A stretch of 64,000 nucleotides of DNA from Candidatus Spongiisociaceae bacterium (GTDB lineage: Bacteria > Actinomycetota > Acidimicrobiia > Spongiisociales > Spongiisociaceae): the NCBI GenBank assembly GCA_965262915.1, contig OZ253564.1, forward strand, positions 896,001 through 960,000. The letters run 5' to 3'. Positions 355 through 52,637 of this stretch are shown here, in pieces. Within the stretch, counting starts at the first letter, position 1. Each line of letters opens with the position of its first letter. The notes beneath the pieces are model-generated. The model was not told the origin of the DNA. It made no database searches and worked only from the letters and a program-made list of their open reading frames with translations. The position numbers were made by a program, and so were the translations under genes.

Positions 355-1209
355 CTACCGCTCGACGGGTAGCCCGACCGCCGACCCCCACTCGGTCCAC
401 GATCCGTCATACACCCGGACGTGGTCCCAGCCCAGTATCCGGGTGGCGGTGAACCAGAGCGAGGATGCCCGATGACTAAGCCGGCAATAGGCGACCACCT
501 CGTCGGTCTGGTCAGGCGCCGCCCCCACCGACCGGAACACCACCTCGAGCTCCTCTGGCGTCTTGAGAGTGTTGTCATCGTTGAACAGTCGTCGCCACAT
601 GAGGTGCCTCGCTCCGGGAATGCGGCCGTGGCGTTCAGCCCCGTAATCGAATCCGGTACCCGGTTTGACCCGCTCGCCCAGATATTCCGATTCGTACCGC
701 CCGTCGAGTATCACCAGTCCCGGTTTCCCCAGATCCTCTTTCAGCTCATGGCAGTAGACCCGCGTCGAATCGTCACGTTCGGCCTGCTGCGGTTCGTAGG
801 GCACGGCGGCGAACGTCGGTGTTTCCTTGGTCAATACCCTTCCGTCGAGCTGCCAGCGCTTCTGGGACCCGTCGAGAATCCGAGCGTCGGGATGGCCGTT
901 CATTACCGCGGTCACCCAGTAGGCGAACATGGCGTACTGGTTGCGCCCGCTGTAGAAGACGACGGTCGTCTCGGGTGAGACCCCCCACGCGCCGAAACGT
1001 TCCGCCATGAGCCGGGGGGTCGGGAACTGGCGCTCCGTGGGGTGCCAGAGCACGTCCTTCCAGTACCAGTTGACCGCGCCCGGGATGTGGCCGTCGCGGT
1101 ACTCGCTGATGTCCGCCTCGTACTGGATCTCGATGATCCGCACCGTGGGATCGTCGAGGCGTGCTTCGAGCCAATCGCCCGAGACGAGGGGGGTGGTGGG
1201 GTCAACCAT
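355..1209 (-). CDS. Two-domain rhodanese/sulfurtransferase
   Basis: Y..GHIPGA, GRIPGA, active-site loop YCRLSHRAS, C-terminal YDGSWTEW signature. Confidence 0.93.
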   Translation of the reverse strand: MVDPTTPLVSGDWLEARLDDPTVRIIEIQYEADISEYRDGHIPGAVNWYWKDVLWHPTERQFPTPRLMAERFGAWGVSPETTVVFYSGRNQYAMFAYWVTAVMNGHPDARILDGSQKRWQLDGRVLTKETPTFAAVPYEPQQAERDDSTRVYCHELKEDLGKPGLVILDGRYESEYLGERVKPGTGFDYGAERHGRIPGARHLMWRRLFNDDNTLKTPEELEVVFRSVGAAPDQTDEVVAYCRLSHRASSLWFTATRILGWDHVRVYDGSWTEWGSAVGLPVER

Positions 1210-1252
1210 CGGGTGAGACCTCCGATCTAGTGGACGTATACATGGTCCGCCT

Positions 1253-1714
1253 TCAAAAGGGTTTGAAGATCATCAAGACCAGGATCACGGTCGCAGTGGC
1301 GCGGAGGTAGATGCCTCCTCGACGTATCCGGGTACGTAGCCGCACGATCTCTGCTGCCTTCTCTCGGGTCGGCTCGCCTGCCTGGGCGGACTCGATTATC
1401 CGTGCCAGGGTCGGGTTCTGGACTGTCACCGAATAGGTGAAGCTCCCGGCGAAGAGGATTATCGACACGAGCAGCCACATCCTGTCGAACAGGGCGTAGC
1501 CCCGTACCACCATGAGCCCGATCCCCGACAGCAGCACCAGTGCCGACAGCGGGATGGCCGTGGTGCTGGTGAGCAGGCGGACCACCCGAGTCGCGAAGAG
1601 GCTGTGTTCGGTGCCGGCGCCCCGCTTGCTGATCCTCCCGAACACGAAGGTGGGGCCGATCCCGGCCATCGCGCCGAACAGGTGCAGGAACAGGAGGATA
1701 CCGAAGAGATCCAC
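1253..1714 (-). CDS. DUF2269-like integral membrane protein
   Basis: About 4 hydrophobic helices, LFLHL.GA...IG near N-terminus, terminal LMIFKPF motif. Confidence 0.75.
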   Translation of the reverse strand: MDLFGILLFLHLFGAMAGIGPTFVFGRISKRGAGTEHSLFATRVVRLLTSTTAIPLSALVLLSGIGLMVVRGYALFDRMWLLVSIILFAGSFTYSVTVQNPTLARIIESAQAGEPTREKAAEIVRLRTRIRRGGIYLRATATVILVLMIFKPF

Positions 1715-1717
1715 GCT

Positions 1718-2572
1718 TCAGCTTCCGTTCCCTCCGGTTACCCGGGGTTGCCACGCCCTCCGTCCGCCCCGGCGTTCGAACCTCCCGAAGGTCGGGTGGT
1801 TCAGATGACCGGCTGCGACGAGGGTGCAGTCCTCTTCCAGCTGCCTGAGTTCCCGTTCTCGCGTCATGACCGCCTCCTCGGGGTCGGCGTCGAACCGGTG
1901 TACCCAACCTGTCTCGGTCGCTATGACCGGATGGTGGATGAGGTCACCGAGGATGAACAGCCGCTCGCCGGCCGAGTGGACTATGAAGCTCGTATGGCCG
2001 GGGGTGTGCCCCGGCGTGGCGACTGCCGTCATAGAACCGGTGAGGCGGTGGCCGTCCGAGAAGGTGTCGAGCACCCCTAAGCGGTCCAAGGGCAGGGCCT
2101 GGCGGGCGATGTTCGGATGGTTTTGGTCCCGGGACGTGAAGAACGCCCAGTCAACCTCGGAGACGAGATAGCGGGCGTTCTCGAAGCGGGGGGAGATCGT
2201 GTCCCCGTCGTAGACCAGATTCCAGCCTACGTGATCGGCGTGTAGATGGGTGAAAGCCACCATATCGATATCTCTCGGGAGCAAGTCCATCTCCCCGAGC
2301 CGATCCAGCAGGGCACCGCGAGCCTTGGGTGCGCCGGGAGGGCCTAGTTCGGGGCCCCAACCGGTGTCGATCAACACGACCCGGTCGTTGCCACGCACCA
2401 CGAAGCAGTGGAAGTTGACCATGGCGTTTCCCGGATCGGTCTCGATCAGATCCAGGTACGGCGCCCATGCCTCTTCGGGAACTCCCGGGTAGTGCCAACT
2501 CCGGTCAAAGCCGTGGGCCTTGTCCTGTATAGCGGTCACCTCGACGTTGCCGACCCGGACAGTCGTTCTCAT
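1718..2572 (-). CDS. MBL-fold metallo-hydrolase
   Basis: LIDTG, THLHADHVGW, PGHTPGH, GD and AGH motifs; ATG at 2572 overlaps the upstream stop (ATGA). Confidence 0.92.
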   Translation of the reverse strand: MRTTVRVGNVEVTAIQDKAHGFDRSWHYPGVPEEAWAPYLDLIETDPGNAMVNFHCFVVRGNDRVVLIDTGWGPELGPPGAPKARGALLDRLGEMDLLPRDIDMVAFTHLHADHVGWNLVYDGDTISPRFENARYLVSEVDWAFFTSRDQNHPNIARQALPLDRLGVLDTFSDGHRLTGSMTAVATPGHTPGHTSFIVHSAGERLFILGDLIHHPVIATETGWVHRFDADPEEAVMTRERELRQLEEDCTLVAAGHLNHPTFGRFERRGGRRAWQPRVTGGNGS

Positions 2573-3975
2573 TGCGAGTTCCGGTGGCCGCCGGCGGGAG
2601 GATGGAAGTCGGCCCGCTTGCACAGATCGGCGAGCCGTGTGTTCGCGTCATCGACGACCGCGGGCGTGTCGACGGTGGTCAGCCGCCCGTGACGCTTCAG
2701 GATCCTTCCGTCGACCATCACGGTGTCGACGTTCGACGGTTGGGCCGAATGCACGATGGCCACCGCGGGATCCCGGACCGGCGCCATGTTCAGAGTGTCG
2801 GTTCTGACCATCATCAGGTCGGCACGTTTCCCGACGGTCAGGGATCCGACCAGATGATCCAGCCCCAGGGCTCGTGCTCCTTCTATCGTCGCCAACTCCA
2901 AGGCTCGGCGAGGACTCAGCGCTTCGGCATCCAGGTTGGCGATGGCCTCCAACCCGACCGCGACCCGCATCGCCGAGAAGACATCCGCGCAGGCCGAGAT
3001 GGCGGTGGTGTCGAGTGACAGGCTGACGGAGATGCCCGCTGCTAGGTGTCCGTTTATCGGCGGGGCGCCCATGCCCAACCGGAGGGAGGACAGGGGGCTC
3101 ATGGTCACCGGGATCCGGTTGGCAGCGAGGTGCTCACGCTCGCGCGGGGAGATGTAGAGGCAGTGGGCCAGGAGCATGTCAGGTCCGAGGAGCCCCTCTT
3201 CGTGAAGTATGTGGACTTGGTGGATCCGTTTCACCTCCGCCTGCGTCCCGGCGCAATGCATAGAGATCGTCAAACCCTGCTCCCGCGCCAACGCCCACTC
3301 CCTGCGATAGACATCGGGAGTCGACCGCGCCGGCCCCCGAACTCCCACGCCGAGCGTCAGAAGGTCTTTCGAGTTCGGCAACCACTCGTCGGCGATCCTA
3401 CGGATGTTTCCGAAGTCCATCACCTCGTCGGGCAGGACACCGCCTTTCTCCAGGATGGCCCGCATCTTTTGCATCGGCATCGAAGGATGCGCCGAAGGTG
3501 CGGAATAGGAGAAATGCACACGGGTGCCCAGTCGACGGTGGACATCGAGGTTGGCCTCGGCGTCGCTGTATCGCATGATGTTGTGTGACCAGTCGTGGAC
3601 GGTCGTGACGCCGGCCGCTATGCCCTCGGCCATTCCGAGAAGCACTCCCGCCGCGAGGTCTCCCGACGTTAAGAAGCTTCCGAGCCTGCCCTTGGTGGCG
3701 AACCACCCATGTTTCTTCCCGTCGCCAACCACACCTCTGAGTAGGGTGGCCCACACGTGCCAATGCGAATCGACGAAACCGGGCAGGGTGATGGTGTTCC
3801 TTCCGTCGATGGTCTCGGCGCCGCCGGCAGCTAGCCGCGACCCGATCGTCACCAGCTTCCCGTTGTCGATTTCGATGTCCGTTCCGGCCAGTTCCCCTGA
3901 AGCCGGATCCATAGTCAGCGCCGTGGTGTCGCGTATGACATAGTGACCGCGCCGGGGAAGGTTCTGAACAGCCAT
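2569..3975 (-). CDS. Amidohydrolase family protein (SsnA/MtaD/AtzA-like deaminase fold)
   Basis: PGFVDSHWH, AGVTT, MHCAG, AHC, SLSLD, AT..GA.ALG, GSL.VGKRAD; start set at 3975 after an AAGGA RBS rather than ORF-track 4239. Confidence 0.9.
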   Translation of the reverse strand: MAVQNLPRRGHYVIRDTTALTMDPASGELAGTDIEIDNGKLVTIGSRLAAGGAETIDGRNTITLPGFVDSHWHVWATLLRGVVGDGKKHGWFATKGRLGSFLTSGDLAAGVLLGMAEGIAAGVTTVHDWSHNIMRYSDAEANLDVHRRLGTRVHFSYSAPSAHPSMPMQKMRAILEKGGVLPDEVMDFGNIRRIADEWLPNSKDLLTLGVGVRGPARSTPDVYRREWALAREQGLTISMHCAGTQAEVKRIHQVHILHEEGLLGPDMLLAHCLYISPREREHLAANRIPVTMSPLSSLRLGMGAPPINGHLAAGISVSLSLDTTAISACADVFSAMRVAVGLEAIANLDAEALSPRRALELATIEGARALGLDHLVGSLTVGKRADLMMVRTDTLNMAPVRDPAVAIVHSAQPSNVDTVMVDGRILKRHGRLTTVDTPAVVDDANTRLADLCKRADFHPPAGGHRNSQ

Positions 3976-4015
3976 GTACGGGATCCTTGTCAGAGCATGG
4001 AGGGCTTGGCCAGCG

Positions 4016-4030
4016 AGCATACCGTATACA
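4016..4030. promoter_or_regulatory. Candidate GntR operator AGCATACCGTATACA
   Basis: Imperfect palindrome 40 bp upstream of the amidohydrolase start; recurs at 4367, 5245 and 47871. Confidence 0.65.
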
Positions 4031-4366: not shown

Positions 4367-4381
4367 TGCATACAATATGCC
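4367..4381. promoter_or_regulatory. Candidate GntR autoregulatory operator TGCATACAATATGCC overlapping a TACAAT -10-like hexamer
   Basis: Directly upstream of the GntR ATG at 4385; same motif family as 4016, 5245 and 47871. Confidence 0.6.
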
Positions 4382-4384: not shown

Positions 4385-5113
4385 ATGCAAACGGCTGAGG
4401 AGCACTCCGACAACCCGCGTACCGGGGTAAGCGGGTCTCCCCTCCTCGCGGCCGTCGAACCGCTAAGCGCCGAGGAGGCTGTGACGGTTGCTCTGCGGGA
4501 CGCGATCCTCAGCGGACGGTTGGCGCCCGGTGCGCGTCTGGCCCAGGCCGAATTGGCCAGACAACTCGGTGTCAGCCGAATCCCACTACGCGACGCGCTG
4601 CGTCGGCTGGGCGAAGAGGCCCTCGTGAAGATCGACGGGCGGCGGGGCGCCTGGGTGACCGCTCTGTCCAAACGCGACATAGCGGAGATATACGAGCTCA
4701 GGATCATGCTGGAAGGTCGATGCATCCGGTATGCGGTGCGGAACCTGGCCGACGAGGACGAGCGGGAGGCGCTGGTCGAACTGTCCGAGCACATGGACAG
4801 CTCCGACCGGGACGTGATGGAGGGAAGAGCTGCCCGGCGCAAGTTCTACGACGTTCTCTATTCGCATGCCGGCCGACCCCGGATGCACCGCCTCATCATG
4901 CAACTGCGGGACAACGTCGGTCGCTATCACCTGCTCCAGGACACCGACCTGTCCCACGCCGCCCACTCGGAGGTGCGCCACTGTATCAACAGCGGAGATG
5001 TGCCCGGCGCCGCCCTCGCGGTGACCGCCCACCTCGAGGAAGCACGAGACGACCTTCTGGCAACGATGACGGACGAGTCTCCACCTAACACCCCGGCCGC
5101 TTCTCGTAGGTAG
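4385..5113 (+). CDS. GntR family transcriptional regulator (FCD domain)
   Basis: LRDAILSGRLAPGARL..ELA.QLGVSRIPLRDALRRL wHTH; IYELR.MLE and H..V...I..GD FCD motifs. Confidence 0.95.
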   Translation: MQTAEEHSDNPRTGVSGSPLLAAVEPLSAEEAVTVALRDAILSGRLAPGARLAQAELARQLGVSRIPLRDALRRLGEEALVKIDGRRGAWVTALSKRDIAEIYELRIMLEGRCIRYAVRNLADEDEREALVELSEHMDSSDRDVMEGRAARRKFYDVLYSHAGRPRMHRLIMQLRDNVGRYHLLQDTDLSHAAHSEVRHCINSGDVPGAALAVTAHLEEARDDLLATMTDESPPNTPAASRR

Positions 5114-5244: not shown

Positions 5245-5259
5245 TGCATAACGTATACA
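5245..5259. promoter_or_regulatory. Candidate GntR operator TGCATAACGTATACA
   Basis: 56 bp upstream of hydantoinase A start; overlaps a TACAAT hexamer. Confidence 0.65.
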
Positions 5260-5315
5260 ATCTCGGCATGGACCTTACGAACCCCCTTTCAGTATCGCGT
5301 CCGGCGGGAGGTGAC

Positions 5316-7487
5316 ATGTACCGGGTAGCCATCGATGTAGGCGGCACGTTCACCGACTGTCTGGTGCTCGACGAGCGGAGCGGCGACCTGCGCCAGTTCA
5401 AGGCCCCCACAACTCCCGCGGATCCTTCGATCGGCTGTATCAACGGCCTTTCGAAAGCCGCGGCGGCCTACGGACTTTCGCTGCCCGCCTTCCTGGGTCG
5501 GGTGGAACTTCTCATTCACGGCACGACTCTGGCGACCAACACCCTCATCAACGAGGACGGCGCTAAGACCGGGATGATCACGACCAAGCACTTTCGGGAC
5601 ATGCTGGAGATACGGCGCGGCTACAAGAACGTGCGAGTGTCGATGTACAACGTGTTCATCCCGCCTTACAAGCCTTTGATCCCGAGACGTCTGCGGCTCG
5701 AGGCGGAGGAGCGCGTCCTGTACACGGGCGAGGTTCTCACCCCTCTGAACGAGGATGACGTTCGAGAGGCGGCCCGACGGCTCGGCCGCGAGGGGATCGA
5801 GTCGGTCGCGATCGGTTTCCTGCACTCCTATGCCAACCCCGGTCACGAGCTACTCGCGGCCGAGATCGTGCGGGAGGAACTAGGTGACGAGGTCTACGTC
5901 ACGACATCGTCCCAGATCCTCCCGGTCTGGAGAGAGTGGGAGCGCTTCTCGACGATGGCGGTGTCGGCTTACACGGGCCCGGCGGTGAAGCGCTACCTGC
6001 TGGCTCTCGAGAGCCGTCTTGCCGAGAACGGCTTCGCGGGCAGCCTGATGATGATGCTCTCGGATGGTCTCGTGGAGACGGTCGAGAACTGCATTCCTCG
6101 GGCTGTCTACCTGATCGGATCCGGACCGGCGGCCGCACCTGCCGGGGCCGTACACCTAGGGGACGAAACCGGCCACCGGAACCTTCTCAGCTTCGACATG
6201 GGGGGAACGTCTATCGACATCGGGGTGGTGATGGGAGGCGAGATTCCCACCACCTCGGAGGGGTGGGTCCAGGACGAGCGCGTAGCCATCAAGATGGTGG
6301 ACATAGTCTCGGCCGGCGCCGGCGGAGGCTCGATAGCGTGGGTCGATTCGCTGGGCCTGCCGCGGGTCGGTCCGAACTCGGCCGGGAGCGATCCGGGACC
6401 GGCCTGCTACGCCAAGGGCGGTGAGAACCCGACGGTCACCGACGCGGACCTGGTGCTCGGCTACATAGACCCCGGATACTTCCTGGGGGGCGAGATAGAG
6501 CTCGACGTCGAACTGGCCGAGCGCGCTATCAGGCGAAAGGTGGCGGAGCCGCTCGGGATGACCTCAGAGGAGGCTGCCCAGGCGATAATGACCGCGGTCA
6601 GCTCCTTCACAGCCGACGAGATCAACGAAGTATCCACTCGCCGCGGCATAGATATCCGTGATCTCACCCTCGTGGCAGGGGGCGGGGCCGGGCCGGCGCA
6701 CGCGGCGTTCATCGCCGACATTCTGGGCCTCCCGCATGTGATCATTCCCTCGGTGGCCTCGACCTACTCGGCGTTCGGGATGTTCGCCATGGACGTGGGC
6801 CGTAACTACGCCCGTTCCTACATCACCCGCTACGCAGATCTCGATTCTGATCGGGTACAGGTGCTGTACGAGGAGATGGAGCAGGAGGCCATCGCAGGTT
6901 TCGAGGAAATGGGATACGAGGCGAGCGACGTGAGCTTCTTCCGGACCGCCGATCTCCGCTACATAGGCCAGTTTCACGAGGTGGAGGTCGAGATGCCGAT
7001 GGACCCCGGTCAGGATCCGGCCGCGACCGCCGAGAAGACCTTCAGGGCGAGTGTGTTCCGGGACGCCGGCGGAATGAGAATGCTCGACGCAGTCGAGGAA
7101 GCCATCGAGAACTTCCACGCCAAGCACTTCGACCTGTACACCTTCAACATGCCCTGGCAGGGCGTGGAACTGTTGACGTTCCGGTTGCGGGCGACCGTCC
7201 CGAGGGCGCCCTTCGAGCTCCAGCGGATCGCCGAGGGCGGGCCCGATCCGTCGGCCGCGCTCAAGGCGCATCGGAAGTGCTGGTTCGACGGGAAGGCGGT
7301 TCGTACCCCGATCTTCGACGGTGGTCGCCTGCTGGCGGGTAACCGGATCTCCGGTCCGGCGATCATCGAGGAGCCGACGACGACGGTGGTCATTCCCAAG
7401 TCGTACGTCGCTACGGTCGACGCACAACGGAGCTACCACCTAGCCCGCAGTGCAACGGCTGCCAACGTGACAGGAGGCGCGGTATGA
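5316..7487 (+). CDS. Hydantoinase/oxoprolinase subunit A (ATP-binding)
   Basis: IDVGGTFTD, HGTT.ATN, SGPAA, DMGGTS, GAGGGSIA, PGPACY, PTVTDA; GGAGGTG RBS before ATG 5316. Confidence 0.95.
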   Translation: MYRVAIDVGGTFTDCLVLDERSGDLRQFKAPTTPADPSIGCINGLSKAAAAYGLSLPAFLGRVELLIHGTTLATNTLINEDGAKTGMITTKHFRDMLEIRRGYKNVRVSMYNVFIPPYKPLIPRRLRLEAEERVLYTGEVLTPLNEDDVREAARRLGREGIESVAIGFLHSYANPGHELLAAEIVREELGDEVYVTTSSQILPVWREWERFSTMAVSAYTGPAVKRYLLALESRLAENGFAGSLMMMLSDGLVETVENCIPRAVYLIGSGPAAAPAGAVHLGDETGHRNLLSFDMGGTSIDIGVVMGGEIPTTSEGWVQDERVAIKMVDIVSAGAGGGSIAWVDSLGLPRVGPNSAGSDPGPACYAKGGENPTVTDADLVLGYIDPGYFLGGEIELDVELAERAIRRKVAEPLGMTSEEAAQAIMTAVSSFTADEINEVSTRRGIDIRDLTLVAGGGAGPAHAAFIADILGLPHVIIPSVASTYSAFGMFAMDVGRNYARSYITRYADLDSDRVQVLYEEMEQEAIAGFEEMGYEASDVSFFRTADLRYIGQFHEVEVEMPMDPGQDPAATAEKTFRASVFRDAGGMRMLDAVEEAIENFHAKHFDLYTFNMPWQGVELLTFRLRATVPRAPFELQRIAEGGPDPSAALKAHRKCWFDGKAVRTPIFDGGRLLAGNRISGPAIIEEPTTTVVIPKSYVATVDAQRSYHLARSATAANVTGGAV

Positions 7488-9259
7488 AAGCCGACACCAT
7501 CGACCCGATCACCCTGTCGACCATCTGGAACTCCTTCCAGAGCATGGGTCGCGAGATGCGACACGTGATCGACCGCACCGCGCAGAACTACCTGATCGCC
7601 CAACTCCACGACATGGCGGCGGGTATCTGGGATGCGCAGGCCCGTACCATCGCGGTGCCCGAGGGGCCGACCTCCATGTTCCTGTCGCAGCAGTTCTCGG
7701 TCGAGTACATCCTCGACAAGTTCGGCGACGACCTCCACCCGGGGGATGTCATCATCTGCAACGACCCTTATAAGGGGTACTGCAACCACCTTCCGGACTG
7801 GGGCTTCTTCCGGCCCATCTTCTACGAGGACGAGCTGGTCTTCGTAGCCCTCACCCGCGGGCACCAGCTCGACACAGGGGGTGCCTTCCCCGGCGGCTAC
7901 TTCCCCAACGGCTACGACATCCACGCCGAAGGGTTGATGATCCCTCCGACCAAGATCTACGACCGGGGCCGGGAGCGCACCGATGTGCTCGAGCTCATCT
8001 GGAACAACGTCCGCTGGCCCGACGGCGTGAAGATCGACAACTACGCGCTGATGGCCGCGCTGCAGGTCTGCGACAACCGGGTCGTCGCCCTGCTCGACAA
8101 GTACAGCCTCCCGACGGTCAAAGAAGCCGTGGAGGAGATGCTCGACCGTATGGAGACCAACGTTCGTGCCCAGCTGGCCGAGGTTCCCGACGGCACCTAT
8201 TACGGCGAATCGGCAACCGACGACGACGGCACCGTTCTCGACGAGCAAGTGTGGGTCCGGTGCGCGGCGACCATCAAAGGCGACGAGCTCATCCTGGACT
8301 TCTCCGAAAGCGACGCGCAGCGGCGCGGCTTCGTCAACTGTGTATATTCGTCGACCTACAGCCGGGCGGTGGCAGGGAGCTTCCTGTACTTCGATCCCAC
8401 CTACTCGGAGTTCCACAACGAGGGCAGCATGCGCCCCATCACAGTGGTCGCTCCCGAAGGTTCGGTCTGCAATGCCCAGTACCCGGCGACGGTCGGCGGC
8501 TCTCCGGTGAACGTGGGGACGCAGGTGCTCGAGGCGACGGTGAGCGCTCTGTCGAAGGCCATGCCGGACAAGGCGATCGCCGGATGGGGGCGGCGTCGAG
8601 GCCACTACATCGCCGGTGTCGACCCCCGCACGGGGGAGCGGTACGTACAGACCACCACCGACGCGGACGGCGGATCGGGTGCCGTTTGGGGATACGACGG
8701 ATTCGAAGGGGCGATGGGAATGTCCGGCCTTGGTTCGATCCGGAGGGGCAGCGTCGAAGAGATCGAGATCAGGTTCCCGTGGCGGGCCGTGCGCTACCAC
8801 TACGTCCCGGACATGTCCGGCGCCGGTCGCTGGCGGGGAGGATCGGGAATGCTGTGGGAGGTGGAGAACGTCGGCGGGGATGTCGGCGTGGCCACCGGTA
8901 GCTCGGACGGGGATCTCACCCAGCCTCCGGGAGCGGGCGGTGGCGAAGACGGTCCGCTATCGAGGATGTACCTCCGCCGGGGTGATGAGACGATCCCGGC
9001 CCGAACCCACCGGATGGTGCAGGTCAGGACAGGCGAGATCCTCGGAAAGGTCAGCGGCGGCGGTGGTGGGGTAGGGGATCCCACCGAGCGTGAGCCCGAG
9101 AAGGTACTCGATGACGTAATGAACGAGTGGGTGACGCTCGAGCATGCCCGGAACGTCTACAAGGTGGTGATCGACCCTGAATCGATGACCATCGACAGAG
9201 AGCAGACCAGGCTGCTCCGGAGCTCCACCGGCGCTTCCCCAGAGAAGACCGAGACCTAG
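7484..9259 (+). CDS. Hydantoinase B/oxoprolinase family subunit
   Basis: DP.TL, NDPY...NHLPD, H..D.GG..PG, EGL.IPP, G.GR.RGG.G, GGGGG.GDP..R; ATGA-coupled to subunit A. Confidence 0.95.
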   Translation: MKADTIDPITLSTIWNSFQSMGREMRHVIDRTAQNYLIAQLHDMAAGIWDAQARTIAVPEGPTSMFLSQQFSVEYILDKFGDDLHPGDVIICNDPYKGYCNHLPDWGFFRPIFYEDELVFVALTRGHQLDTGGAFPGGYFPNGYDIHAEGLMIPPTKIYDRGRERTDVLELIWNNVRWPDGVKIDNYALMAALQVCDNRVVALLDKYSLPTVKEAVEEMLDRMETNVRAQLAEVPDGTYYGESATDDDGTVLDEQVWVRCAATIKGDELILDFSESDAQRRGFVNCVYSSTYSRAVAGSFLYFDPTYSEFHNEGSMRPITVVAPEGSVCNAQYPATVGGSPVNVGTQVLEATVSALSKAMPDKAIAGWGRRRGHYIAGVDPRTGERYVQTTTDADGGSGAVWGYDGFEGAMGMSGLGSIRRGSVEEIEIRFPWRAVRYHYVPDMSGAGRWRGGSGMLWEVENVGGDVGVATGSSDGDLTQPPGAGGGEDGPLSRMYLRRGDETIPARTHRMVQVRTGEILGKVSGGGGGVGDPTEREPEKVLDDVMNEWVTLEHARNVYKVVIDPESMTIDREQTRLLRSSTGASPEKTET

Positions 9260-16030: not shown

Positions 16031-16031
16031 G

Positions 16032-41369: not shown

Positions 41370-41660
41370 ATGCCAAGATTGAGATTGGAACTGAGTTGGG
41401 AGCCTCGACCCGCAACGAAGAGAGAGGCTGCTGTCAACACCCTAATATGGACGGGGCGGGTCCTGATTCTCCTTTCCCTCGTCGTAGGGTTCTTTGGAAT
41501 CCCCATGGTGTGGTTGGCAGTAGCGATGCTGATGATCTACCCGCTCTACGTTGCGATCTACTGGCGGGCTATCAGCGTCAGGCGGCCGGAGGTTGTCACC
41601 TTGGTGGTAATCGCCGTGGCGCTCGCGGCCTTGTTCATCATTGCAATCGGTCTTCGGTGA
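41370..41660 (+). CDS. Small hypothetical membrane protein (about 3 TM)
   Basis: GAGGTGG RBS before ATG; 96 aa with hydrophobic segments; no recognised family. Confidence 0.6.
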   Translation: MPRLRLELSWEPRPATKREAAVNTLIWTGRVLILLSLVVGFFGIPMVWLAVAMLMIYPLYVAIYWRAISVRRPEVVTLVVIAVALAALFIIAIGLR

Positions 41661-41819
41661 ATTGTCCGATGTAACCAGGCCTTTCAACAGCCTTTCCGTT
41701 CATCGAACGTGGGTAAGCAGGATCGTCGCGCGTCCGGTGAGGTACGCGGAGCATTCGATCGTCGTTCCGGGTCTCCCGGGACGACGATCGACCGGGGTTC
41801 CCCTTGACCTACGATCCGG

Positions 41820-45407: not shown

Positions 45408-45552
45408 ATGCGTTTGCTCCCCGTCCGAACAATCCGGCCAGGAGAATGCCGACCATCCGATCGTCGCCCCAGTCTTCCAACCGCGACATCGGGTGTCCAG
45501 CACCCTCCGGGAACCTTAGCGCCAGGTCCTCGCAAACGTTCGGTTACCCGGC

Positions 45553-45628: not shown

Positions 45629-47776
45629 CTATGCCGAGCCGAGGATTTCGAGTGCTTTGTCCTGGAACTCGAAGGTGACGAGTTCTTCGACGGTGTACTC
45701 ACGGTCGACCGCTTCGAATGAGAAGGAGGTGTCCAGGGTGGTCTGCATGAGGTCGTAGTCGAGCGATCCGTTTACGGGCCACATGTCGAGCTCATCGATG
45801 AGGTTGTCGTAGTCAAGCGAAGCAGCTTCGGGGGTGAGCCGTTCGTTCACGGACATGGCGTAATCGATCCACCGCTGCTTGTCGTCCTGCGCCCAGCGGG
45901 CCGACTTCAGCGAAGCGATGTTGAACGCCAGCGCGATGTCGGGGTTGGCCTCCACCCAGTCCCGCTCGGCATACCAGATCGAGGAGATCTGGGGGTTGGA
46001 CTCCCAGCCGGCGCAAAGCATGTTGTAGGCGCCTTCGCCTTCGTTGAGGGTGAGCTGGGTAAGACGCCAAGTTGCTGAGATTCCCCCGACGACCTGCCCC
46101 GACGTGATCGCCTGGGTCGCTTCACCGGTGTGCGCCAGGCGCACCAGCTGCACGTCGTCGACGGTCATTCCCACGTCAGCCAAACACTTCTGGAGGGTCT
46201 GGCCGGTGATCTGGTTCAGGCTCTGGGTCGCTGCCACGGGCTGGCCGCGCAACTCCTCCATCGACGATATCGGCGCCTTGGCGGCGATGATGAACGAGTT
46301 CTTCTGGTCGTCACCACCGAACGCTACGAAGTCCGAACCCGCCGACACCGCATTGGCCATACCGGCCAAAGACAGCTGACCGACCGCTACTTCACCGGCG
46401 ATAGTCGCCGCTACCAGCGGATCCGAGTCCAGAAGCCGGAACTCAACATCGAGACCGAAATCATCCCGCAGGAAGTCCATCGTCCGGAACGCCCCTGTCA
46501 ACGAAGCGTTCGGGAACCCCGAACTACCGACCACCACCGACTGGCCCTCGATACGAGACCGGATATCGGCGATCGTCGCTTCCGCATCCATCATCTCATC
46601 CTCAGGCATTGCGCCCATGGATCCGACATCAGGGTTGCGTTCGGCGACGCCGAGGATTTCGACTGCTTTGTCCTGGAACTCGAAGGTGACGAGTTCTTCG
46701 ACGGTGTACTCACGGTCGACCGCTTCGAATGAGAAGGAGGTGTCCAGGGTGGTCTGCATGAGGTCGTAGTCGAGCGATCCGTTTACGGGCCACATGTCGA
46801 GCTCACCTAGGAGGTTGTCGTAGTCAAGCGAAGCAGCTTCGGGGGTGAGCCGTTCGTTCACGGACATGGCGTAATCGATCCACCGCTGCTTGTCGTCCTG
46901 CGCCCAGCGGGCCGACTTCAGCGAAGCGATGTTGAACGCCAGCGCGATGTCGGGGTTGGCCTCCACCCAGTCCCGCTCGGCATACCAGATCGAGGAGATC
47001 TGGGGGTTGGACTCCCAGCCGGCGCAAAGCATGTTGTAGGCGCCTTCGCCTTCGTTGAGGGTGAGCTGGGTAAGACGCCAAGTTGCTGAGATTCCCCCGA
47101 CGACCTGCCCCGACGTGATCGCCTGGGTCGCTTCACCGGTGTGCGCCAGGCGCACCAGCTGCACGTCGTCGACGGTCATTCCCACGTCAGCCAAACACTT
47201 CTGGAGGGTCTGGCCGGTGATCTGGTTCAGGCTCTGGGTCGCTGCCACGGGCTGGCCGCGCAACTCCTCCATCGACGATATCGGCGCCTTGGCGGCGATG
47301 ATGAACGAGTTCTTCTGGTCGTCACCACCGAACGCTACGAAGTCCGAACCCGCCGACACCGCATTGGCCATACCGGCCAAAGACAGCTGACCGACCGCTA
47401 CTTCACCGGCGATAGTCGCCGCTACCAGCGGATCCGAGTCCAGAAGCCGGAACTCAACATCGAGACCGAAATCATCCCGCAGGAAGTCCATCGTCCGGAA
47501 CGCCCCTGTCAACGAAGCGTTCGGGAACCCCGAACTACCGACCACCACCGACTGGCCCTCGATACGAGACCGGATATCGGCGATCGTCGCTTCCGCATCC
47601 ATCATCTCATCCTCAGGCGGGGCGGTCTCGGTGGGCGTCTCCGTGGGTGCCGTTTCCTGGGTAGCCTGCGTTGTCACGGTTGCTTGGCTGGTCGCGGCGG
47701 GTTCGTCGTCTCCGCCGCAGGCCACGACGAGCAATGCGAACCCGAGTAGCAACGCCAACAGCCTCTTGTGTTTCAT
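45629..47776 (-). CDS. ABC substrate-binding lipoprotein (NMT1/SsuA-like) with two near-identical binding domains
   Basis: VVAC lipobox, Thr/Pro linker, about 323-aa unit repeated twice; GGAGG RBS. Confidence 0.9.
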   Translation of the reverse strand: MKHKRLLALLLGFALLVVACGGDDEPAATSQATVTTQATQETAPTETPTETAPPEDEMMDAEATIADIRSRIEGQSVVVGSSGFPNASLTGAFRTMDFLRDDFGLDVEFRLLDSDPLVAATIAGEVAVGQLSLAGMANAVSAGSDFVAFGGDDQKNSFIIAAKAPISSMEELRGQPVAATQSLNQITGQTLQKCLADVGMTVDDVQLVRLAHTGEATQAITSGQVVGGISATWRLTQLTLNEGEGAYNMLCAGWESNPQISSIWYAERDWVEANPDIALAFNIASLKSARWAQDDKQRWIDYAMSVNERLTPEAASLDYDNLLGELDMWPVNGSLDYDLMQTTLDTSFSFEAVDREYTVEELVTFEFQDKAVEILGVAERNPDVGSMGAMPEDEMMDAEATIADIRSRIEGQSVVVGSSGFPNASLTGAFRTMDFLRDDFGLDVEFRLLDSDPLVAATIAGEVAVGQLSLAGMANAVSAGSDFVAFGGDDQKNSFIIAAKAPISSMEELRGQPVAATQSLNQITGQTLQKCLADVGMTVDDVQLVRLAHTGEATQAITSGQVVGGISATWRLTQLTLNEGEGAYNMLCAGWESNPQISSIWYAERDWVEANPDIALAFNIASLKSARWAQDDKQRWIDYAMSVNERLTPEAASLDYDNLIDELDMWPVNGSLDYDLMQTTLDTSFSFEAVDREYTVEELVTFEFQDKALEILGSA
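45638..47618. repeat. 970-bp direct repeat (45638-46607 and 46649-47618), period 1011 bp
   Basis: Only 4 nucleotide differences found by eye (AVE/ALE, LLGE/LIDE); 41-bp unique spacer. Confidence 0.95.
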
Positions 47777-47870: not shown

Positions 47871-47885
47871 CGCATAATGTATACA
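47871..47885. promoter_or_regulatory. Candidate GntR operator CGCATAATGTATACA
   Basis: 95 bp upstream of the SBP start; matches the sites at 4016, 4367 and 5245. Confidence 0.65.
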
Positions 47886-48030: not shown

Positions 48031-49011
48031 CTATTGTCGTAGCCGGGTCCTACCAAATGCGGGGATGACCTCTGAGCCGAGTTGCTCGATACCGTCTTCG
48101 AAGGCGTCCATCCTCTCTCGCAGATCGAGAACCACCTCATCCACCCCTCGGCCCTCCAATTCATGGAGGTCTGTGATCACATCGTCGGCATTCCCGGCGA
48201 TCAGCGCCCCGCGCAGGTCATCCGCCGAGTCGAAGGGCCCATCCGGGCGCCAGGCCGGCTTCCGACGCGACTCCTCGAGAATCCCCTCGACGTTGACTTT
48301 GGCCAGGGCGCGCTCCCGGTTCCGGTCGAGGGAGACCAACGGGACGATGGCGACCCGCATCTTCTTGTCGGTGGCTTCGGCCTCTCCCCGGAGGCGTGCG
48401 GACAATCGATCGAAGACCCGCAGAGGGCACCGGCCGGGGAACCATCCGTCGGCGAAACGGACGGCCCGCCGTATTGCCGCCAGGCTGGATCCGCAATAGA
48501 GCAGCTCCAAGTCTCTCGGTGGGGCCGGGTCCAGCGTGAGATCATCGAATCCGATGAGTGACCCTCGATGGGATGCATGGGGCTGGGACGTGGCCCGCAG
48601 AACCGTCACCATCTCCTCGAACAGGGCCAGGCGATCGTCGATCGAGAGTCCGGCCAGCCGGAAGGCGTTGGGCTGACCGCCCAGCCCGACGCCGAGCACC
48701 AGCCTCCCGCGAGCCAGGTAGGCGAGCGACCCGACCATCTGGGAAAGCACCACGGGCGGGCGTATGGGAACGAGGGTCGCCATCCCCACGGTGAGGTCGG
48801 TGGTTGCCGCCACGGCGCTCATGGCTATGAAAGGATCGACGAAGTGGTGGCTGGGGTTCTCGAACGACACGCCGCCGGCGAAACCCAACTGATCCCGGAA
48901 GTAGACGCTCGAGAATCCGAGTTCCTGCAGGCGCGGGCCGATCCCGAACACCCGATCCCAGGTCGAGTGCGGGCCGAAGTGCGGTATCAGGAGACCGAAG
49001 CGGAGGCTCAT
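48031..49011 (-). CDS. LLM class flavin-dependent oxidoreductase, paralog 2
   Basis: FGLLIPHFGPH N-terminus like 42387..43436, DP, GRL.LGVG.G, ADGW; start 49011 or 49041. Confidence 0.9.
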   Translation of the reverse strand: MSLRFGLLIPHFGPHSTWDRVFGIGPRLQELGFSSVYFRDQLGFAGGVSFENPSHHFVDPFIAMSAVAATTDLTVGMATLVPIRPPVVLSQMVGSLAYLARGRLVLGVGLGGQPNAFRLAGLSIDDRLALFEEMVTVLRATSQPHASHRGSLIGFDDLTLDPAPPRDLELLYCGSSLAAIRRAVRFADGWFPGRCPLRVFDRLSARLRGEAEATDKKMRVAIVPLVSLDRNRERALAKVNVEGILEESRRKPAWRPDGPFDSADDLRGALIAGNADDVITDLHELEGRGVDEVVLDLRERMDAFEDGIEQLGSEVIPAFGRTRLRQ

Positions 49012-49052
49012 TGCTGTCGGATGTTCATCGGTACCGGACATCGTATACGATC

Positions 49053-50237
49053 ATGCCCGTGCCTCCCGGATCTGACGGACCCGTCCGGGTAGCCGCGGTT
49101 CAGGCGGCCCCGGTATTTCTCGACCGGGCTGCGTCCTTGCAGAAGGCTTGCAGTCTGATAAGCGAGGCCGCGGCTGCCGGCGCCCGGCTGATCGCCTTCG
49201 GTGAGAACTTCCTCCCGGGACATCCGATCTGGTTCCACGCGCTGCCGCCCACCGCCGGTCGTTCGAGGGAACTCGCCACCGCCATGGTGGAGAACGCTCT
49301 GACCGTCCCGGGCCCGGAGAGCGACCTTCTGTGCGAGGCCGCTCGCAGTGCCGGAGCGATGCTGGTCATCGGATTCGTCGAACGTCCCGACCCTCGGGTG
49401 AGCGTGGTGTTCGACAGCCAGCTGGTCGTGGCGCCGGACGGCGAGCTGCTCGGCGTGAGGAGAAAGCTGGTGCCCGCCGTGGGCGAGCGGGTCTTCTTCC
49501 ATCCGGGGGGAGAGGAGTCGATCCGGATATTCGATTCGCCGTGGGGACCGGTGAGCGTGCTGGCGGGAGGGGAGAACTCCAATCCGCTCCTCACGTATGC
49601 GATGCGCGGTCTGGGCGCCCGGATCCATGTGGCTCTCTGGCCGCCTCATTTCCATGCCCCCGGCGTGATGCACAACGTCGTGTCGATCACGGGACGGGCT
49701 ATCGCGTACCAGAACACGGCCCACGTGCTCTCCGTGGCAGCTTCATCCGACCTAGCAGCCGTGGCTCGCGTGGAGGCCGGAGCCGATCACCGGGGCAACC
49801 TCGAAGCCATGACCGAGGAGCCGGGGTCCATGATCTACGCACCTCGCGGCACCGTTCTGGCCGGCCCGCAGCGCGGCGAAGGCATCCTGTATGCGGACAT
49901 CGACCCGAATGCCGGAACCTGGGCGCAGCTCGTGAACCGTCAATACGATCGTCCCGATCTCCTGCGGCTCGCCTGGGGTCGGGAAGATGAGCCGCAGGCG
50001 GAGAGCCCACGTGTCGGGGCGGGCACGGACCCCGGGGACTCTTGCACCGGGCAGGATTCTTGGTCGGGGCGTGCCCGGCGACTGATACAGGACCGGTTCG
50101 GGGACGCGCTCGAACCTGCTGATACCGAGGCCCTGGTTCCCTACGTGGTCCAGATCCTCCGTAGGACGGAGAAGCTTGCGCAGCTTGTCCCGGCCTCGGT
50201 CGATCCCCGCACTGCCATGTATGCGGGTGGGCGGTGA
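49053..50237 (+). CDS. Nitrilase-superfamily protein lacking the catalytic Cys, with C-terminal extension
   Basis: VAAVQAAP, F.E.FLPG.P.W, RRKL.P...ER, LAGGEN (Cys replaced by Gly), EGILYADID, Y.RPD. Confidence 0.88.
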   Translation: MPVPPGSDGPVRVAAVQAAPVFLDRAASLQKACSLISEAAAAGARLIAFGENFLPGHPIWFHALPPTAGRSRELATAMVENALTVPGPESDLLCEAARSAGAMLVIGFVERPDPRVSVVFDSQLVVAPDGELLGVRRKLVPAVGERVFFHPGGEESIRIFDSPWGPVSVLAGGENSNPLLTYAMRGLGARIHVALWPPHFHAPGVMHNVVSITGRAIAYQNTAHVLSVAASSDLAAVARVEAGADHRGNLEAMTEEPGSMIYAPRGTVLAGPQRGEGILYADIDPNAGTWAQLVNRQYDRPDLLRLAWGREDEPQAESPRVGAGTDPGDSCTGQDSWSGRARRLIQDRFGDALEPADTEALVPYVVQILRRTEKLAQLVPASVDPRTAMYAGGR

Positions 50238-51691
50238 GCGACAACGTAGCCTTTGTCCCGATCAGTGATTTGGCGCCCCGAGTCTCGTCCCGGGAGGTCT
50301 CCCCGGTCGAGTTGGTCTCCGTGGCCCTCGAACGCATCGACACCCTCGACGCCCGGCTGCGCTCCTACATCACTGTGTTCGAAAAGGAGGCCATGGCCGC
50401 GGCCCGAGCGGCCGAAGATGCGATAGCGAGCGGTAACTATCTAGGTCCGCTCCACGGTATTCCGGTCGCGGTCAAGGACAACATCGCCGTTGCGGGATTT
50501 CCCACCACCAACGGGTCGGTTTTCTGGGAAGACCACACGACGGACTTCGATGCCGAGGTCGTGATCCGTCTCCGCCGAGCCGGGGCCATCATCCTCGGGA
50601 AGAACAACATGCACGAATGGGGTATGGGAGGTACTTGCAAAGGTATGTACTTCGGCACTGTGCGTAACCCCTGGGATCCGTCGCGCATCCCCGGCGGTTC
50701 GAGTGGCGGCTCGGCGGCGGCGGTAAGCGCCGGGATGGCCTGGGCTGCCGTCGGTACCGACGGATGGGGGTCGATCCGGACCCCGGCGTCCTACTGCGGG
50801 GTGGTCGGCTTGATGCCCACCCATGGGCTCGCCAGCCGTTTCGGGGAGTTGCCACCGACCAGCTCGTGGCATCACACCATCGGCCCGATCGCCCGCACCG
50901 TTCGGGACGTTGCAACCCTGCTCGACGCGATGGCCGGACATGACCCGAAGGATCCGACATCTATCCACTGCGGATTCGAGGGCTCCTACCGTGACGGTCT
51001 CGAATCCGGGGTCAGCGGTATGAGGGTGGGTGTGCCCACGTCGTTCTTCTTCGACGACGCGCTGCCCGAGGTGGAGGGCGCGGTTCGGAAAGCCGCCCGG
51101 ACCTTCGAGGATCTGGGTGCGGTGCTGGTTGAGGTTGACCTGTCGGCCTCCTACAACACGCCTCTGGCTTTGGCGGCCGCCCAGCACGAGTCGCAGTCCG
51201 TCCTTCTCCCATACGCCCTCGGCCATCCGGATGGTTTTGCCACCCCCGAGATCCGCTACCGCATCCTGGCCGGGGAGTTCGTCTCCGCGGCCGATCACCG
51301 GAGAGGCATGCAGGTGCGCAACGAGATGCGCACCAAGGTTATGAAAGTGTTCGAGACCGCAGATGTCGTGCTGACACCCTGCAATTCGACGGTGGCTTTC
51401 CCCATCGATGCCAGACAGGTGAGGATCGGTGACGGAACCCACGTCGATCTGGGCGATCCCGGCGGACAGAGCAGGCTCACCACCAGACTCACCCTGCCCT
51501 GGAACCTGGTCGGGGTTCCGGCCATCTCCATACCTTCCGGGAGCCACCTCGACGGCCTGCCGGTGGGGCTGCAGCTGGCCGCCGGCCCGCTGCGGGAGCC
51601 CCAGCTGCTGAGGGTCGCGGCGGCCTACGAAGCCGCGGCCGGCGGTTACCAGGTACCGGGTCTAGTGAACGCCGGTGGGCTTCCGGAGTAG
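50234..51691 (+). CDS. Amidase signature family protein (GatA/AtzE-like)
   Basis: GPLHGIP.AVKD, GK.N.HE, GGSSGGSAAAV, GTD..GSIR.PA, GLP.GLQ; GTGA coupling. Confidence 0.95.
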   Translation: MSDNVAFVPISDLAPRVSSREVSPVELVSVALERIDTLDARLRSYITVFEKEAMAAARAAEDAIASGNYLGPLHGIPVAVKDNIAVAGFPTTNGSVFWEDHTTDFDAEVVIRLRRAGAIILGKNNMHEWGMGGTCKGMYFGTVRNPWDPSRIPGGSSGGSAAAVSAGMAWAAVGTDGWGSIRTPASYCGVVGLMPTHGLASRFGELPPTSSWHHTIGPIARTVRDVATLLDAMAGHDPKDPTSIHCGFEGSYRDGLESGVSGMRVGVPTSFFFDDALPEVEGAVRKAARTFEDLGAVLVEVDLSASYNTPLALAAAQHESQSVLLPYALGHPDGFATPEIRYRILAGEFVSAADHRRGMQVRNEMRTKVMKVFETADVVLTPCNSTVAFPIDARQVRIGDGTHVDLGDPGGQSRLTTRLTLPWNLVGVPAISIPSGSHLDGLPVGLQLAAGPLREPQLLRVAAAYEAAAGGYQVPGLVNAGGLPE

Positions 51692-51695
51692 TTGG

Positions 51696-52637
51696 GTGGC
51701 CGCTCCCGTCCCGCTCCGAGTGTGTCTGTTCAATGGCGCCTCCTCGCTGCCGATCCGCATCGCCGACCATCTCGGGTTGCTGTCGGCTGCCGGCTTCGCG
51801 ACCGAACTGCACCTGACAAAGGGCTCGAAGCAGCTGATGGAGGGTCTGCTGGACGGCCGGTATGACGTGGTGCATGCCGCCCCGGACAACTTCATCGAGT
51901 GGCGAGACCGGACCGGAGCGGACATCGTGGCCTGGATCGGAGGTACCAGCGGACCGCTGCAGCTCATCGGCGCGCCCGAACTGTTGAAAGTCGATGACCT
52001 GGCCGGACACGAGATAGCGGTGGACTCGCCGACATCAGGGTTCGTCTCGGTGTTGAGAAAGATCCTCCGTGCCGGCGGTTTGGCAACCGAGGAGGTCACC
52101 TTCGTACAACGGGGAAGCACGCAGATCCGCTACGAGGTGCTGATGTCCGGTGAGACCTCTGCCACGATGCTGGCCCTGCCCTGGTCTGCCCAGGCTCTCG
52201 AGGCCGGTTTCCGCCTTCTGGGGGACAGAGATCAGGTTCTTCCCGGGATGCAGGGATCGTGCGGAGCGTCGCTCGGAACGTGGCTGGACGCGCAGCCCAA
52301 CCTGGCGGATGCTTATCTGAAGGCGTTGTGCGCCGCCATCACCTGGCTCAACCACTCCGACAATCTCGATGAGGCCAACCGATACATCTCCGAGACCTAC
52401 GACACGAGCGACGCACTCGCCGATACGATCCGGCGCTCCATCATGGATCCCCGGACCGGGTGGTCACCTTCGGCGTTCATCGATCCCGCCGGGATCGACA
52501 TCGTGTGCCAACTACGCGCCGAGAACGGTCGACCTCCTGCCGGGCCGCCCACTTCCTACTACACGCTGGACCCGTACCGCCGGGTGTTCGGATTCGGACT
52601 GACGGAGTGCATAGAACGGCGTGTCTCAGCCGTCTAG
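51696..52637 (+). CDS. NMT1/THI5/SsuA-like binding-protein fold, no signal peptide seen
   Basis: A...G.....G, G.YD......DN, DL.G..IAVD...SG, G.T..R...L..G...AT.L..P. Confidence 0.8.
   Translation: MAAPVPLRVCLFNGASSLPIRIADHLGLLSAAGFATELHLTKGSKQLMEGLLDGRYDVVHAAPDNFIEWRDRTGADIVAWIGGTSGPLQLIGAPELLKVDDLAGHEIAVDSPTSGFVSVLRKILRAGGLATEEVTFVQRGSTQIRYEVLMSGETSATMLALPWSAQALEAGFRLLGDRDQVLPGMQGSCGASLGTWLDAQPNLADAYLKALCAAITWLNHSDNLDEANRYISETYDTSDALADTIRRSIMDPRTGWSPSAFIDPAGIDIVCQLRAENGRPPAGPPTSYYTLDPYRRVFGFGLTECIERRVSAV

Follow-up and report, generated by a model that had tools for sequence, protein, structure and literature searches.

A candidate GntR-controlled catabolic regulon, bisected by an inserted island, in a Candidatus Spongiisociaceae genome

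The window analysed here is a 64,000-nt stretch (positions 896,001-960,000) of the one-contig, 5.06-Mb genome of a Candidatus Spongiisociaceae bacterium (G000; 64.4% G+C), whose nearest public relatives are metagenome-assembled Acidimicrobiia. It holds two blocks of catabolic genes on either side of an unrelated insert, and on balance these probably form one operator-linked regulon, made of a conserved core and an accessory module, that was split by a later island. The words found at the promoters make it likely that about 25 genes, drawn from both halves, belong to a single regulon under one GntR/FCD protein. An initial annotation had proposed an undescribed GntR-controlled system, a single degradation pathway cut in two by an insertion. 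Every gene family that it named was recovered by Pfam, and a literature search whose sources were available in part yielded no description of the cluster. Families were assigned with Pfam, NCBIfam (20 proteins tested) and the nearest PDB structures.

The core consists of a two-subunit hydantoinase (HydAB), two pairs of thiamine diphosphate (ThDP)-dependent E1 subunits without an E2, an alcohol dehydrogenase (ADH), a rhodanese, an amidohydrolase, a metallo-beta-lactamase (MBL)-fold hydrolase, a DUF2269 protein, a NitT/TauT-type ATP-binding cassette (ABC) importer and the GntR regulator. The accessory module comprises two luciferase-like monooxygenase-family (LLM) proteins, probably dependent on coenzyme F420, an OsmC protein, a nitrilase-like protein without a catalytic Cys, an amidase, a major facilitator superfamily (MFS) exporter and a lone CoxL-type molybdenum (Mo) subunit. 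From left to right, the genes are:

355-1209, minus strand: two-domain rhodanese (active-site loop CRLSHRA) that closes the leftward operon (Pfam)
1253-1714, minus strand: DUF2269 membrane protein (Pfam)
1718-2623, minus strand: MBL-fold hydrolase of the lactonase / methyl-parathion-hydrolase type (Pfam, PDB)
2569-4020, minus strand: amidohydrolase of the AtzA / 8-oxoguanine-deaminase / TRZ-ATZ type, start at ATG 4020 or 3975 (Pfam, PDB)
4385-5113, plus strand: gntR, encoding a GntR domain and an FCD effector domain (Pfam)
5268-7487 and 7484-9259, plus strand: HydA and HydB, ATP-dependent hydantoinase / oxoprolinase / caprolactamase type (Pfam)
9369-10328 and 10328-11341, plus strand: E1 pair 1 (ThDP), E1alpha and E1beta (Pfam)
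11331-12350 and 12374-13417, plus strand: E1 pair 2 (ThDP), E1alpha and E1beta (Pfam)
13639-15900, plus strand: Mo-cofactor large subunit of the CoxL / quinoline-oxidoreductase type (Pfam, PDB)
37275-38339, minus strand: Zn-dependent ADH (Pfam)
38365-39867, minus strand: MFS transporter of the DHA2 (efflux) type (Pfam)
40062-40880, plus strand: ABC ATPase of the NitT/TauT-type importer (Pfam)
47776 to 41820, minus strand: operon of, from right to left, a doubled binding protein (45629-47776), two permeases (44562-45503 and 43549-44586), LLM1 (42387-43436) and OsmC (41820-42383)
48031-49041, minus strand: LLM2, luciferase-like oxidoreductase (Pfam)
49053-50237, plus strand: nitrilase-superfamily protein without the catalytic Cys (Pfam, alignment)
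50234-51691, plus strand: amidase-signature enzyme, GatA/AtzE-like, under every family cut-off (Pfam, NCBIfam)
51675-52637, plus strand: second NMT1-like binding protein (Pfam)

The regulator carries the GntR and FCD domain pair of FadR-like proteins (PF00392, 2e-15; PF07729, 2.3e-14), and HydAB contains the Hydant_A_N, Hydantoinase_A, Hydant_A_C and HydB domains of the hydantoinase/oxoprolinase family (E 1.5e-23 to 1.7e-136). NCBIfam equivalog cut-offs were reached by none of the 20 cluster proteins. The closest was the amidohydrolase (390.3 vs 391 bits, uncharacterised subfamily PRK08204), which has atrazine chlorohydrolase and 8-oxoguanine deaminase as PDB neighbours, while the MBL hydrolase scored 115.9 bits with an AidB-like model (cut-off 360) and the MFS transporter 148.6 bits with an EmrB subfamily (cut-off 230). 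LLM1 is nearest in the PDB to an F420-dependent dehydrogenase, the best sub-threshold NCBIfam matches of LLM2 are F420-type families, and G000 carries CofG/CofH homologues. CofD was rejected as a marker of F420, as the control genomes match that family too, and CofG/CofH were used instead.

The link between the halves is formed by short palindromes, recognised by reading the intergenic sequence and then counted genome-wide. The same palindrome had been reported on both sides of the insert, and it was indeed found there: GCATA-N3-TAT(G/A)C occurs at 4017, 4368 and 5246 on the left and at 47872 on the right. The candidate sites, including two palindromes of other form, are:

4017-4029: candidate operator GCATACCGTATAC, overlapping the amidohydrolase ATG at 4020
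4368-4380: perfect palindrome GCATACAATATGC, 4 nt upstream of the gntR ATG
5246-5259: candidate operator GCATAACGTATACA, ending 9 nt upstream of the hydA ATG (5268) and overlapping a TACAAT -10-like box
39974-39999: palindrome with 10-nt arms, GTGTATACAG-AGCA-CTGTATACAC, containing two TGTATACA boxes, in the MFS/ATPase divergon
47872-47885: candidate operator GCATAATGTATACA, 96 nt upstream of the binding-protein operon
49037-49048: palindrome ATCGTATACGAT, occupying the greater part of the 11-nt gap that separates the start codons of two divergent genes, LLM2 (49041) and the nitrilase-like gene (49053)

GCATA-N3-TAT(G/A)C has five matches in 5.06 Mb, four of them in the cluster, vs a mononucleotide expectation of 3.7 for the whole genome. 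The 14-mer G[CT]ATA[AC]NGTATACA matches three times genome-wide, always in the cluster (3/3), and TGTATACA has ten sites in the genome, of which three are in the cluster, including the pair at 39976/39990 between the MFS and ATPase genes. One predicted operator thus recurs ahead of hydA and gntR, and likewise of the binding-protein operon and the MFS/ATPase divergon; it is kept in two genera. The hydA site was found at all eight closest-relative loci (L019-L026), and the gntR-site palindrome, presumably the autoregulatory operator of that gene, is kept in five of six relatives, with a variant in G023. The MFS/ATPase palindrome is kept in G002, G021 and G023, the LLM2/nitrilase palindrome in G002, G005, G006 and G023, and the binding-protein-operon site in G002 and G023 and also in G005 and G006, where the module is unlinked from the left half. 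Related words occur upstream of hydA in more distant clusters (TTGTATCCAA, TGTATGCA and GTATACAA). A scan for exact palindromes (arms of at least 6 nt) revealed nothing shared outside the binding-protein duplication, and the loose pattern GCATANNNTATGC, allowing two mismatches, was not enriched in the window (12 found vs 10.9 expected). Separate regulators for the halves, which would have counted against the annotation, were not found: GntR is the only regulator among the scanned open reading frames (ORFs) of the cluster, and none lies in the right half.

Co-occurrence of the halves had been set beforehand as a test. Among 41 related genomes, including the unpublished G028 and G039 (both without HydB and nitrilase orthologues), orthologues of HydB (at least 92% identity) and of the Cys-less nitrilase (at least 72%) were found in the same eight and in none of the other 33; these eight are kin from two genera and not independent. 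In G001, G002 and G023 the two halves are contiguous. Sequencing run X19, guessed to be RNA but possibly DNA, gave scattered low-depth contigs only.

Beyond these relatives, the surroundings of the core (±10 kb) were tallied at 51 cross-phylum loci. At least two E1 genes accompany HydB at 28 of the 33 loci with room downstream of it, and all four at 23. In the Chloroflexota clusters, the ADH, rhodanese, amidohydrolase, MBL and DUF2269 genes each pair with their window counterparts as reciprocal best hits: the rhodaneses score 312-396 bits with the window gene vs 148-170 for the next best, and six ADHs best-match the window ADH (129-322 bits vs at most 116 otherwise). In Chloroflexota the ADH lies directly 3' of E1beta-2, and since the window ADH, now to the right of the insert, is the orthologue of this gene, the insert separates genes of the core. 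E1 pair 2 is the pair retained in single-pair clusters (L029, L030, L058), and DUF2269 is kept in 9/51 loci. A GntR orthologue adjoins the core in 16/51, with reciprocal best hits from L035 and L059. Parts of a NitT/TauT system adjoin the core in Chloroflexota and Proteobacteria; the ATPase at 40062-40880 is the best G000 match for the cluster ATPases of L030 and L038, if narrowly (223-225 vs 212-221 bits), and the binding protein beside hydA in L059 (Chloroflexia) has the 51675-52637 gene as its sole G000 match (47.8% identity). In L030 and L035 (Proteobacteria), LLMs and F420-biosynthesis genes (FbiC, CofD) are interleaved with the HydAB-E1 genes. Genes for the nitrilase, OsmC, LLM2 and amidase were found next to the core in this bacterial family alone. 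Clustering of the neighbourhood ORFs for new conserved neighbours returned mostly antisense artefacts in high-GC loci.

The split in the cluster can be stated with high confidence: an unrelated island has landed at the convergent junction of the Mo-subunit and ADH genes and bisects the cluster. Because the insertion point lies between two convergent transcription units, no operon was broken, and the locus illustrates how catabolic islands and insertion sequences (IS) land between transcription units and leave them unbroken. The features of the insertion are:

15977-16122: junction scar, a 54-nt remnant of the ADH 3' end followed by two fragments of the E1beta-2 3' end (85-87%)
16533-37001: lower-GC catabolic island of 20.5 kb, unrelated to the system; limits approximate, taken from the block common to G001
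22844-24277, plus strand: ISL3-family IS of 1434 nt inside the island, with the 8-bp target duplication ACTAAAGA (Pfam)

The G+C fraction is 0.52-0.61 at 16-37 kb vs 0.64-0.67 in the flanks. The island encodes a sugar-type ABC system, an S15 peptidase, DMFA2-like and D-Ser-dehydratase-like proteins, a second HydAB, FmdA-like, U32 and Ldh_2 proteins, an aldo-keto reductase and an ISL3 transposase. That the cluster was divided by an insertion, as first annotated, agrees with the relatives, since none of the seven in which the Mo-subunit/ADH junction is visible (G001, G002, G005, G006, G021, G023 and the L020 genome) has the island there. The gap between the two genes, which are convergent in relatives, measures 34 nt in G023, 87 in G021, 431 in G001 and 511 in G006; other cargo sits at the same junction in G005 (LytB, 2.1 kb) and G002 (a pentapeptide-repeat protein, 5.2 kb). 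In G001 the cluster is whole on one contig from rhodanese to amidase, and the island lies elsewhere (contig C72), with 76-92% protein identity and without the IS. The flanks of the G001 island are neighbours in G000 at 3.8286-3.8295 Mb, that is, an empty site; by eye, this site (3828596-3829492, ~0.9 kb) reads as a pair of small helix-turn-helix proteins. Contigs assembled from three runs, belonging to three studies, span the left junction, which is therefore not a misassembly.

The direct repeat noted at the borders of the insert is real (15977-16030 vs 37271-37324; 54 nt, 81%) but is not a signature of insertion. It was considered as a target-site duplication or att site and rejected, being the diverged 3' end of the ADH gene. 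The E1beta-2 fragments follow at 16032-16122, and the junction stretches as a whole (0.63 kb and 0.27 kb) consist of scars and dispersed repeats. The remnants match the relatives at best at 79-93% over short stretches; they may go back to an early duplication at this locus or to recombination with a copy from outside. Marks of a site-specific genomic island were not found, as none of the 15 island ORFs encodes an integrase and no exact att repeats flank the island, and terminator scans gave one weak match at each junction, not above shuffled sequence. The IS is assigned to ISL3 by its DDE_Tnp_ISL3 transposase, terminal inverted repeats, 8-bp duplication and multiple copies. G000 contains 34 further near-full-length copies of this element (88-99.9% identity), a marked IS expansion.

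The Mo subunit had been called an orphan, and rightly so: none of the 18 genomic Fer2_2 (CoxS) matches falls in the window, and neither the iron-sulfur nor the FAD partner was found, with no FAD_binding_5 domain among the scanned window ORFs. The subunit itself has the hammerhead and two Mo-cofactor-binding domains and matches CoxL (413 bits) and quinoline 2-oxidoreductase (393 bits) in the PDB. It occupies this position at 7/51 loci, all in clusters of the closest relatives. Similarly, Pfam identifies both the E1alpha and the E1beta subunits of 2-oxoacid dehydrogenases, and the cognate E2 domain (PF00198) was found only at 2.23, 3.05 and 4.24 Mb, none of these in the window. Both E1 pairs score under the NCBIfam cut-offs for pyruvate dehydrogenase (PDH); E1alpha-2 has the 339-aa form usual among its homologues and matches PDH E1alpha in the PDB at 115 bits. 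Genome totals are 31 CoxL-type vs 18 CoxS-type and 11 E1alpha vs 3 E2 genes, the last all far from the cluster, so that many Mo-hydroxylase and E1 genes of G000 are without their usual partners nearby.

The nitrilase-like protein was annotated as lacking its Cys, in agreement with the alignment: the catalytic Cys of NitA (6zby), in 'LCCAEH', aligns with the Gly of 'LAGGEN' (full context 'LAGGENSNPL'). Of the Glu-Lys-Cys triad of nitrilases, Glu and Lys align and Cys is replaced. The exchange to Gly is invariant in 6/6 orthologues from two genera. An alignment of 151 sequences, made up of the query and its best 150 library representatives, shows the Cys retained in 127, and Gly or Ala at this position is confined to the query and the representatives nearest to it (56-79% identity). 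A conserved C-terminal tail of ~55 residues extends beyond the nitrilase fold; four orthologues have it fused, and G005 and G006 encode it in a reading frame of its own. Pfam returned nothing for the tail at E up to 1, and an assignment as a GatC/AtzG homologue was rejected (hhalign probability 0.3% against the genome's own GatC). The binding protein, described as doubled, is a 715-aa lipoprotein of the NMT1/SsuA type with an in-frame tandem of 1011 nt whose copies are 99.6% alike. The copies share 99.7% identity in G005 and G006, 95.1% in G023 and 91.8% in G002; in G001 the protein is single, in a short-read assembly in which the repeat could have collapsed. Orthologues from different genomes are 88-90% identical as proteins, so that copies within a genome appear closer than orthologues, which points to gene conversion, the nucleotide and protein scales of the two comparisons being different.

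Several observations weigh against a single pathway under one regulator. A CN-hydrolase, OsmC or LLM2 gene is found within ±10 kb of the core at none of the 51 cross-phylum loci, and a distance of 625-680 kb separates the module from the left half in G005 and G006; because of this absence and this lack of linkage, the substrate of the module may be a different one. The LLMs that accompany the core in L030 and L059 are nearer to a third LLM of G000 (at 984 kb; 75% and 44%) than to LLM1/LLM2 (38% and 35%), and the LLM of L030 and the amidohydrolase next to it have their orthologues at 982.6-985.0 kb of G000 (75% and 62%), not in LLM1 or LLM2. Of the six places with the motif, those at 4017 and 1235 (the latter with CGTATACA) are not kept among relatives, GTATAC being absent from the 4017 site in G002, G005, G006 and G021. 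The motif coincides in part with the TACAAT -10-like box, and TGTATACA and ATCGTATACGAT differ in form from the 13-bp palindrome, so that binding of one protein to all sites is putative. As to the proteins, the MFS transporter is of the efflux type, the nitrilase is without its nucleophile, and no single enzymatic step is assignable, the family models all being below equivalog cut-offs. The tie of the Mo subunit to the pathway is weak because its gene persists alone in G007, a decayed cluster in which HydB and nitrilase orthologues were not found and the Mo gene is flanked only by fragments of E1beta-2 (139 aa) and ADH (102 aa).

The proposal of one pathway thus stands in part: the operator is shared across the halves, but the core recurs without the LLM/OsmC/nitrilase/amidase module. 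With the core found alone and the module far off in G005 and G006, one regulon made of a core and a family-specific accessory module fits better. The same facts could mean instead that two separate systems share a neighbourhood and a regulator, with a core complete in itself and a module (LLMs, OsmC, nitrilase-like protein, amidase and doubled binding protein) for a different, perhaps related, compound. The strongest competitor of the single regulon, this is nonetheless unlikely. In its favour, G005 and G006 have a 40%-identical GntR paralogue ~6 kb from their distant module, and Chloroflexota cores have NitT/TauT permeases of their own, 25-34% identical to those of the window. However, the same 14-mer operator precedes the module operon even where it is unlinked, presence and absence of the halves are identical over the 41 genomes, the module ATPase gene adjoins the core ADH under a paired operator, and the window copy of the module contains no regulator gene of its own.

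For the favoured single regulon, the gene families, synteny, insertion and the specificity and conservation of the motif are shown, whereas repressor binding, every enzymatic step and the substrate are inferred, the chemistry from family membership; on this basis the following scheme can be proposed. Without inducer, a GntR dimer would occupy the GCATA-N3-TAT(G/A)C and TGTATACA operators. At hydA, gntR and the amidohydrolase operon these overlap the -10 box or the start codon, and others would be part of the promoters that serve the binding-protein operon and the MFS/ATPase and LLM2/nitrilase divergons. The repressor would come off once its FCD domain binds a pathway metabolite. The ABC system would import a small N-heterocyclic or lactam compound, maybe with sulfur; the amidohydrolase could replace an exocyclic amino group by an oxo group, giving a lactam, and the LLMs might adjust the redox state of the ring. 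HydAB would then open the lactam at the cost of ATP, the amidase strip the amide nitrogen, and the 2-oxo or hydroxy-keto chain so formed be decarboxylated or cleaved by the E1 pairs. A nitrogen ring is favoured as substrate because of the deaminase-type amidohydrolase, the lactamase-type HydAB, the amidase and the quinoline-oxidoreductase-like Mo subunit, although even so such a compound remains a tentative suggestion, with a chance a little short of even. The fullest version is doubtful when all its parts are taken together: it would have the core as an undescribed cross-phylum route for the ATP-driven opening of a small marine N- (possibly N,S-) heterocycle, followed by two E2-independent ThDP cleavages, with F420-dependent LLM reductases, with an amidase that, in the sponge-associated family, has a dead nitrilase and its tail as partner subunit, and with one GntR acting through the cluster-specific 13-bp palindrome.

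HydAB is read as a lactamase rather than a carboxylase because HydB matches caprolactamase (6yra_B) at 273 bits and N-methylhydantoinase at 266, vs 106 for acetophenone carboxylase. These scores also bear on a very unlikely alternative, in which the core degrades a ketone or diol, HydAB acting like acetone carboxylase and ADH and E1 as in acetoin/butanediol cleavage. HydAB does share a superfamily with acetone and acetophenone carboxylases, and a Zn-dependent ADH together with E1alpha/beta is the make-up of acetoin-cleaving systems. However, HydB is much nearer the lactam hydrolases, the third small subunit of the carboxylases was not seen among the scanned ORFs, and the genes conserved alongside encode a deaminase-type amidohydrolase and, within this bacterial family, an amidase. 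Least probable of all is organosulfur scavenging of the Ssu/Tau kind, in which a NitT/TauT importer and LLM monooxygenases would free sulfite and the rhodanese handle the sulfur: the only NCBIfam and PDB matches of the binding protein are of the SsuA type (75.8 bits; 3uif, E 2.8e-5), LLM1 weakly matches SsuD and SfnG, and the rhodanese is kept in the core across phyla, yet the scores fall far under the cut-offs (SsuA 75.8/163.5, SsuD 48.8/518.2, SfnG 54.7/383), the LLMs score higher on F420-type families, a flavin reductase was not seen among the scanned ORFs, and twelve other catabolic enzymes would be unaccounted for.

Among known systems, the caprolactamase CapAB (PDB 6yra) and N-methylhydantoinase (PDB 7hk5) share with the window the two-subunit HydA/HydB make-up, full-length matches and the same Pfam domains. 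However, the window HydAB scores only 591.6 and 350.8 bits with the CapAB models (NF050156, NF050157), whose cut-off is 1000, and no characterised CapAB or N-methylhydantoinase is known to stand beside E1 pairs. The E1 subunits of PDH, branched-chain 2-oxoacid dehydrogenase and acetoin complexes have the same domains (E1_dh in alpha, Transket_pyr/Transketolase_C in beta), with human PDH E1alpha as the nearest structure; the window differs in having two different tandem pairs and no E2 or E3 in the cluster. In the creatinine / N-methylhydantoin and hydantoin route, a deaminase is followed by an ATP-dependent hydantoinase and then by a decarbamoylase. The order of chemistry proposed here (deaminase-type amidohydrolase, HydAB, amide-cleaving enzyme) would be alike, whereas the window is without a match to a creatinine-specific model, and that route has nothing equivalent to the E1 pairs, ADH, rhodanese and LLMs. 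The regulator resembles GntR/FadR (FCD) repressors in its domain pair and in a short AT-rich palindrome with GT..AC at the presumed targets and its own promoter, and differs in its predicted operator word, GCATA-N3-TATRC, which is specific to the cluster in G000.

The probable regulon link between the halves, with the operator-linked accessory module, the anatomy of the insertion and the clade of Cys-less nitrilases are new. If the proposed regulon holds, it would offer a testable case, with a single regulator, a single operator word and two binding proteins open to screening, for a widespread enzyme set without a characterised member, found in Acidimicrobiia, Chloroflexota, Proteobacteria and Binatia-type lineages and common in sponge and marine metagenomes. 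Given this distribution, the identity of the substrate would name a nutrient that symbionts draw from the host or from seawater. The cluster would also be a clear case of E1-type ThDP enzymes working without E2, and of a nitrilase fold conserved after loss of its nucleophile.

Further observations concern the surroundings of the cluster. The ATPase/OsmC junction (40881-41819) is a second variable spot, and its 129-aa ORF has no family match. Its length is only 0.3 kb in G002 but reaches 1.3 kb in G001 and 3.4 kb in G023, where it holds another CN-hydrolase-like gene; in G021 it extends over 13.5 kb with a Bmp-type ABC system, LacI, MFS and DUF4143 proteins. The right flank (53449-64000) is another lower-GC stretch (0.54-0.60), encoding a sugar-type ABC system, GFO/IDH/MocA, M24/creatinase-like and 3-hydroxyisobutyrate-dehydrogenase-like proteins, a CoA-transferase III, a glyoxalase and a cupin. 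Upstream of its sugar-type ABC operon (53449-56750), a 28-nt word with TGTATACG occupies 53228-53255 and five further places in G000 and is probably a separate dispersed operator or repeat. A second catabolic cluster (L087) lies 20-30 kb past the window, at 980315-990209, and contains genes for an M20 peptidase, an alpha/beta hydrolase, an amidohydrolase, an LLM, an MFS transporter, a class-III aminotransferase, an NMT1 binding protein and a permease. Its hydrolase-amidohydrolase-LLM trio matches the set that stands beside HydAB-E1 in the proteobacterial locus L030.

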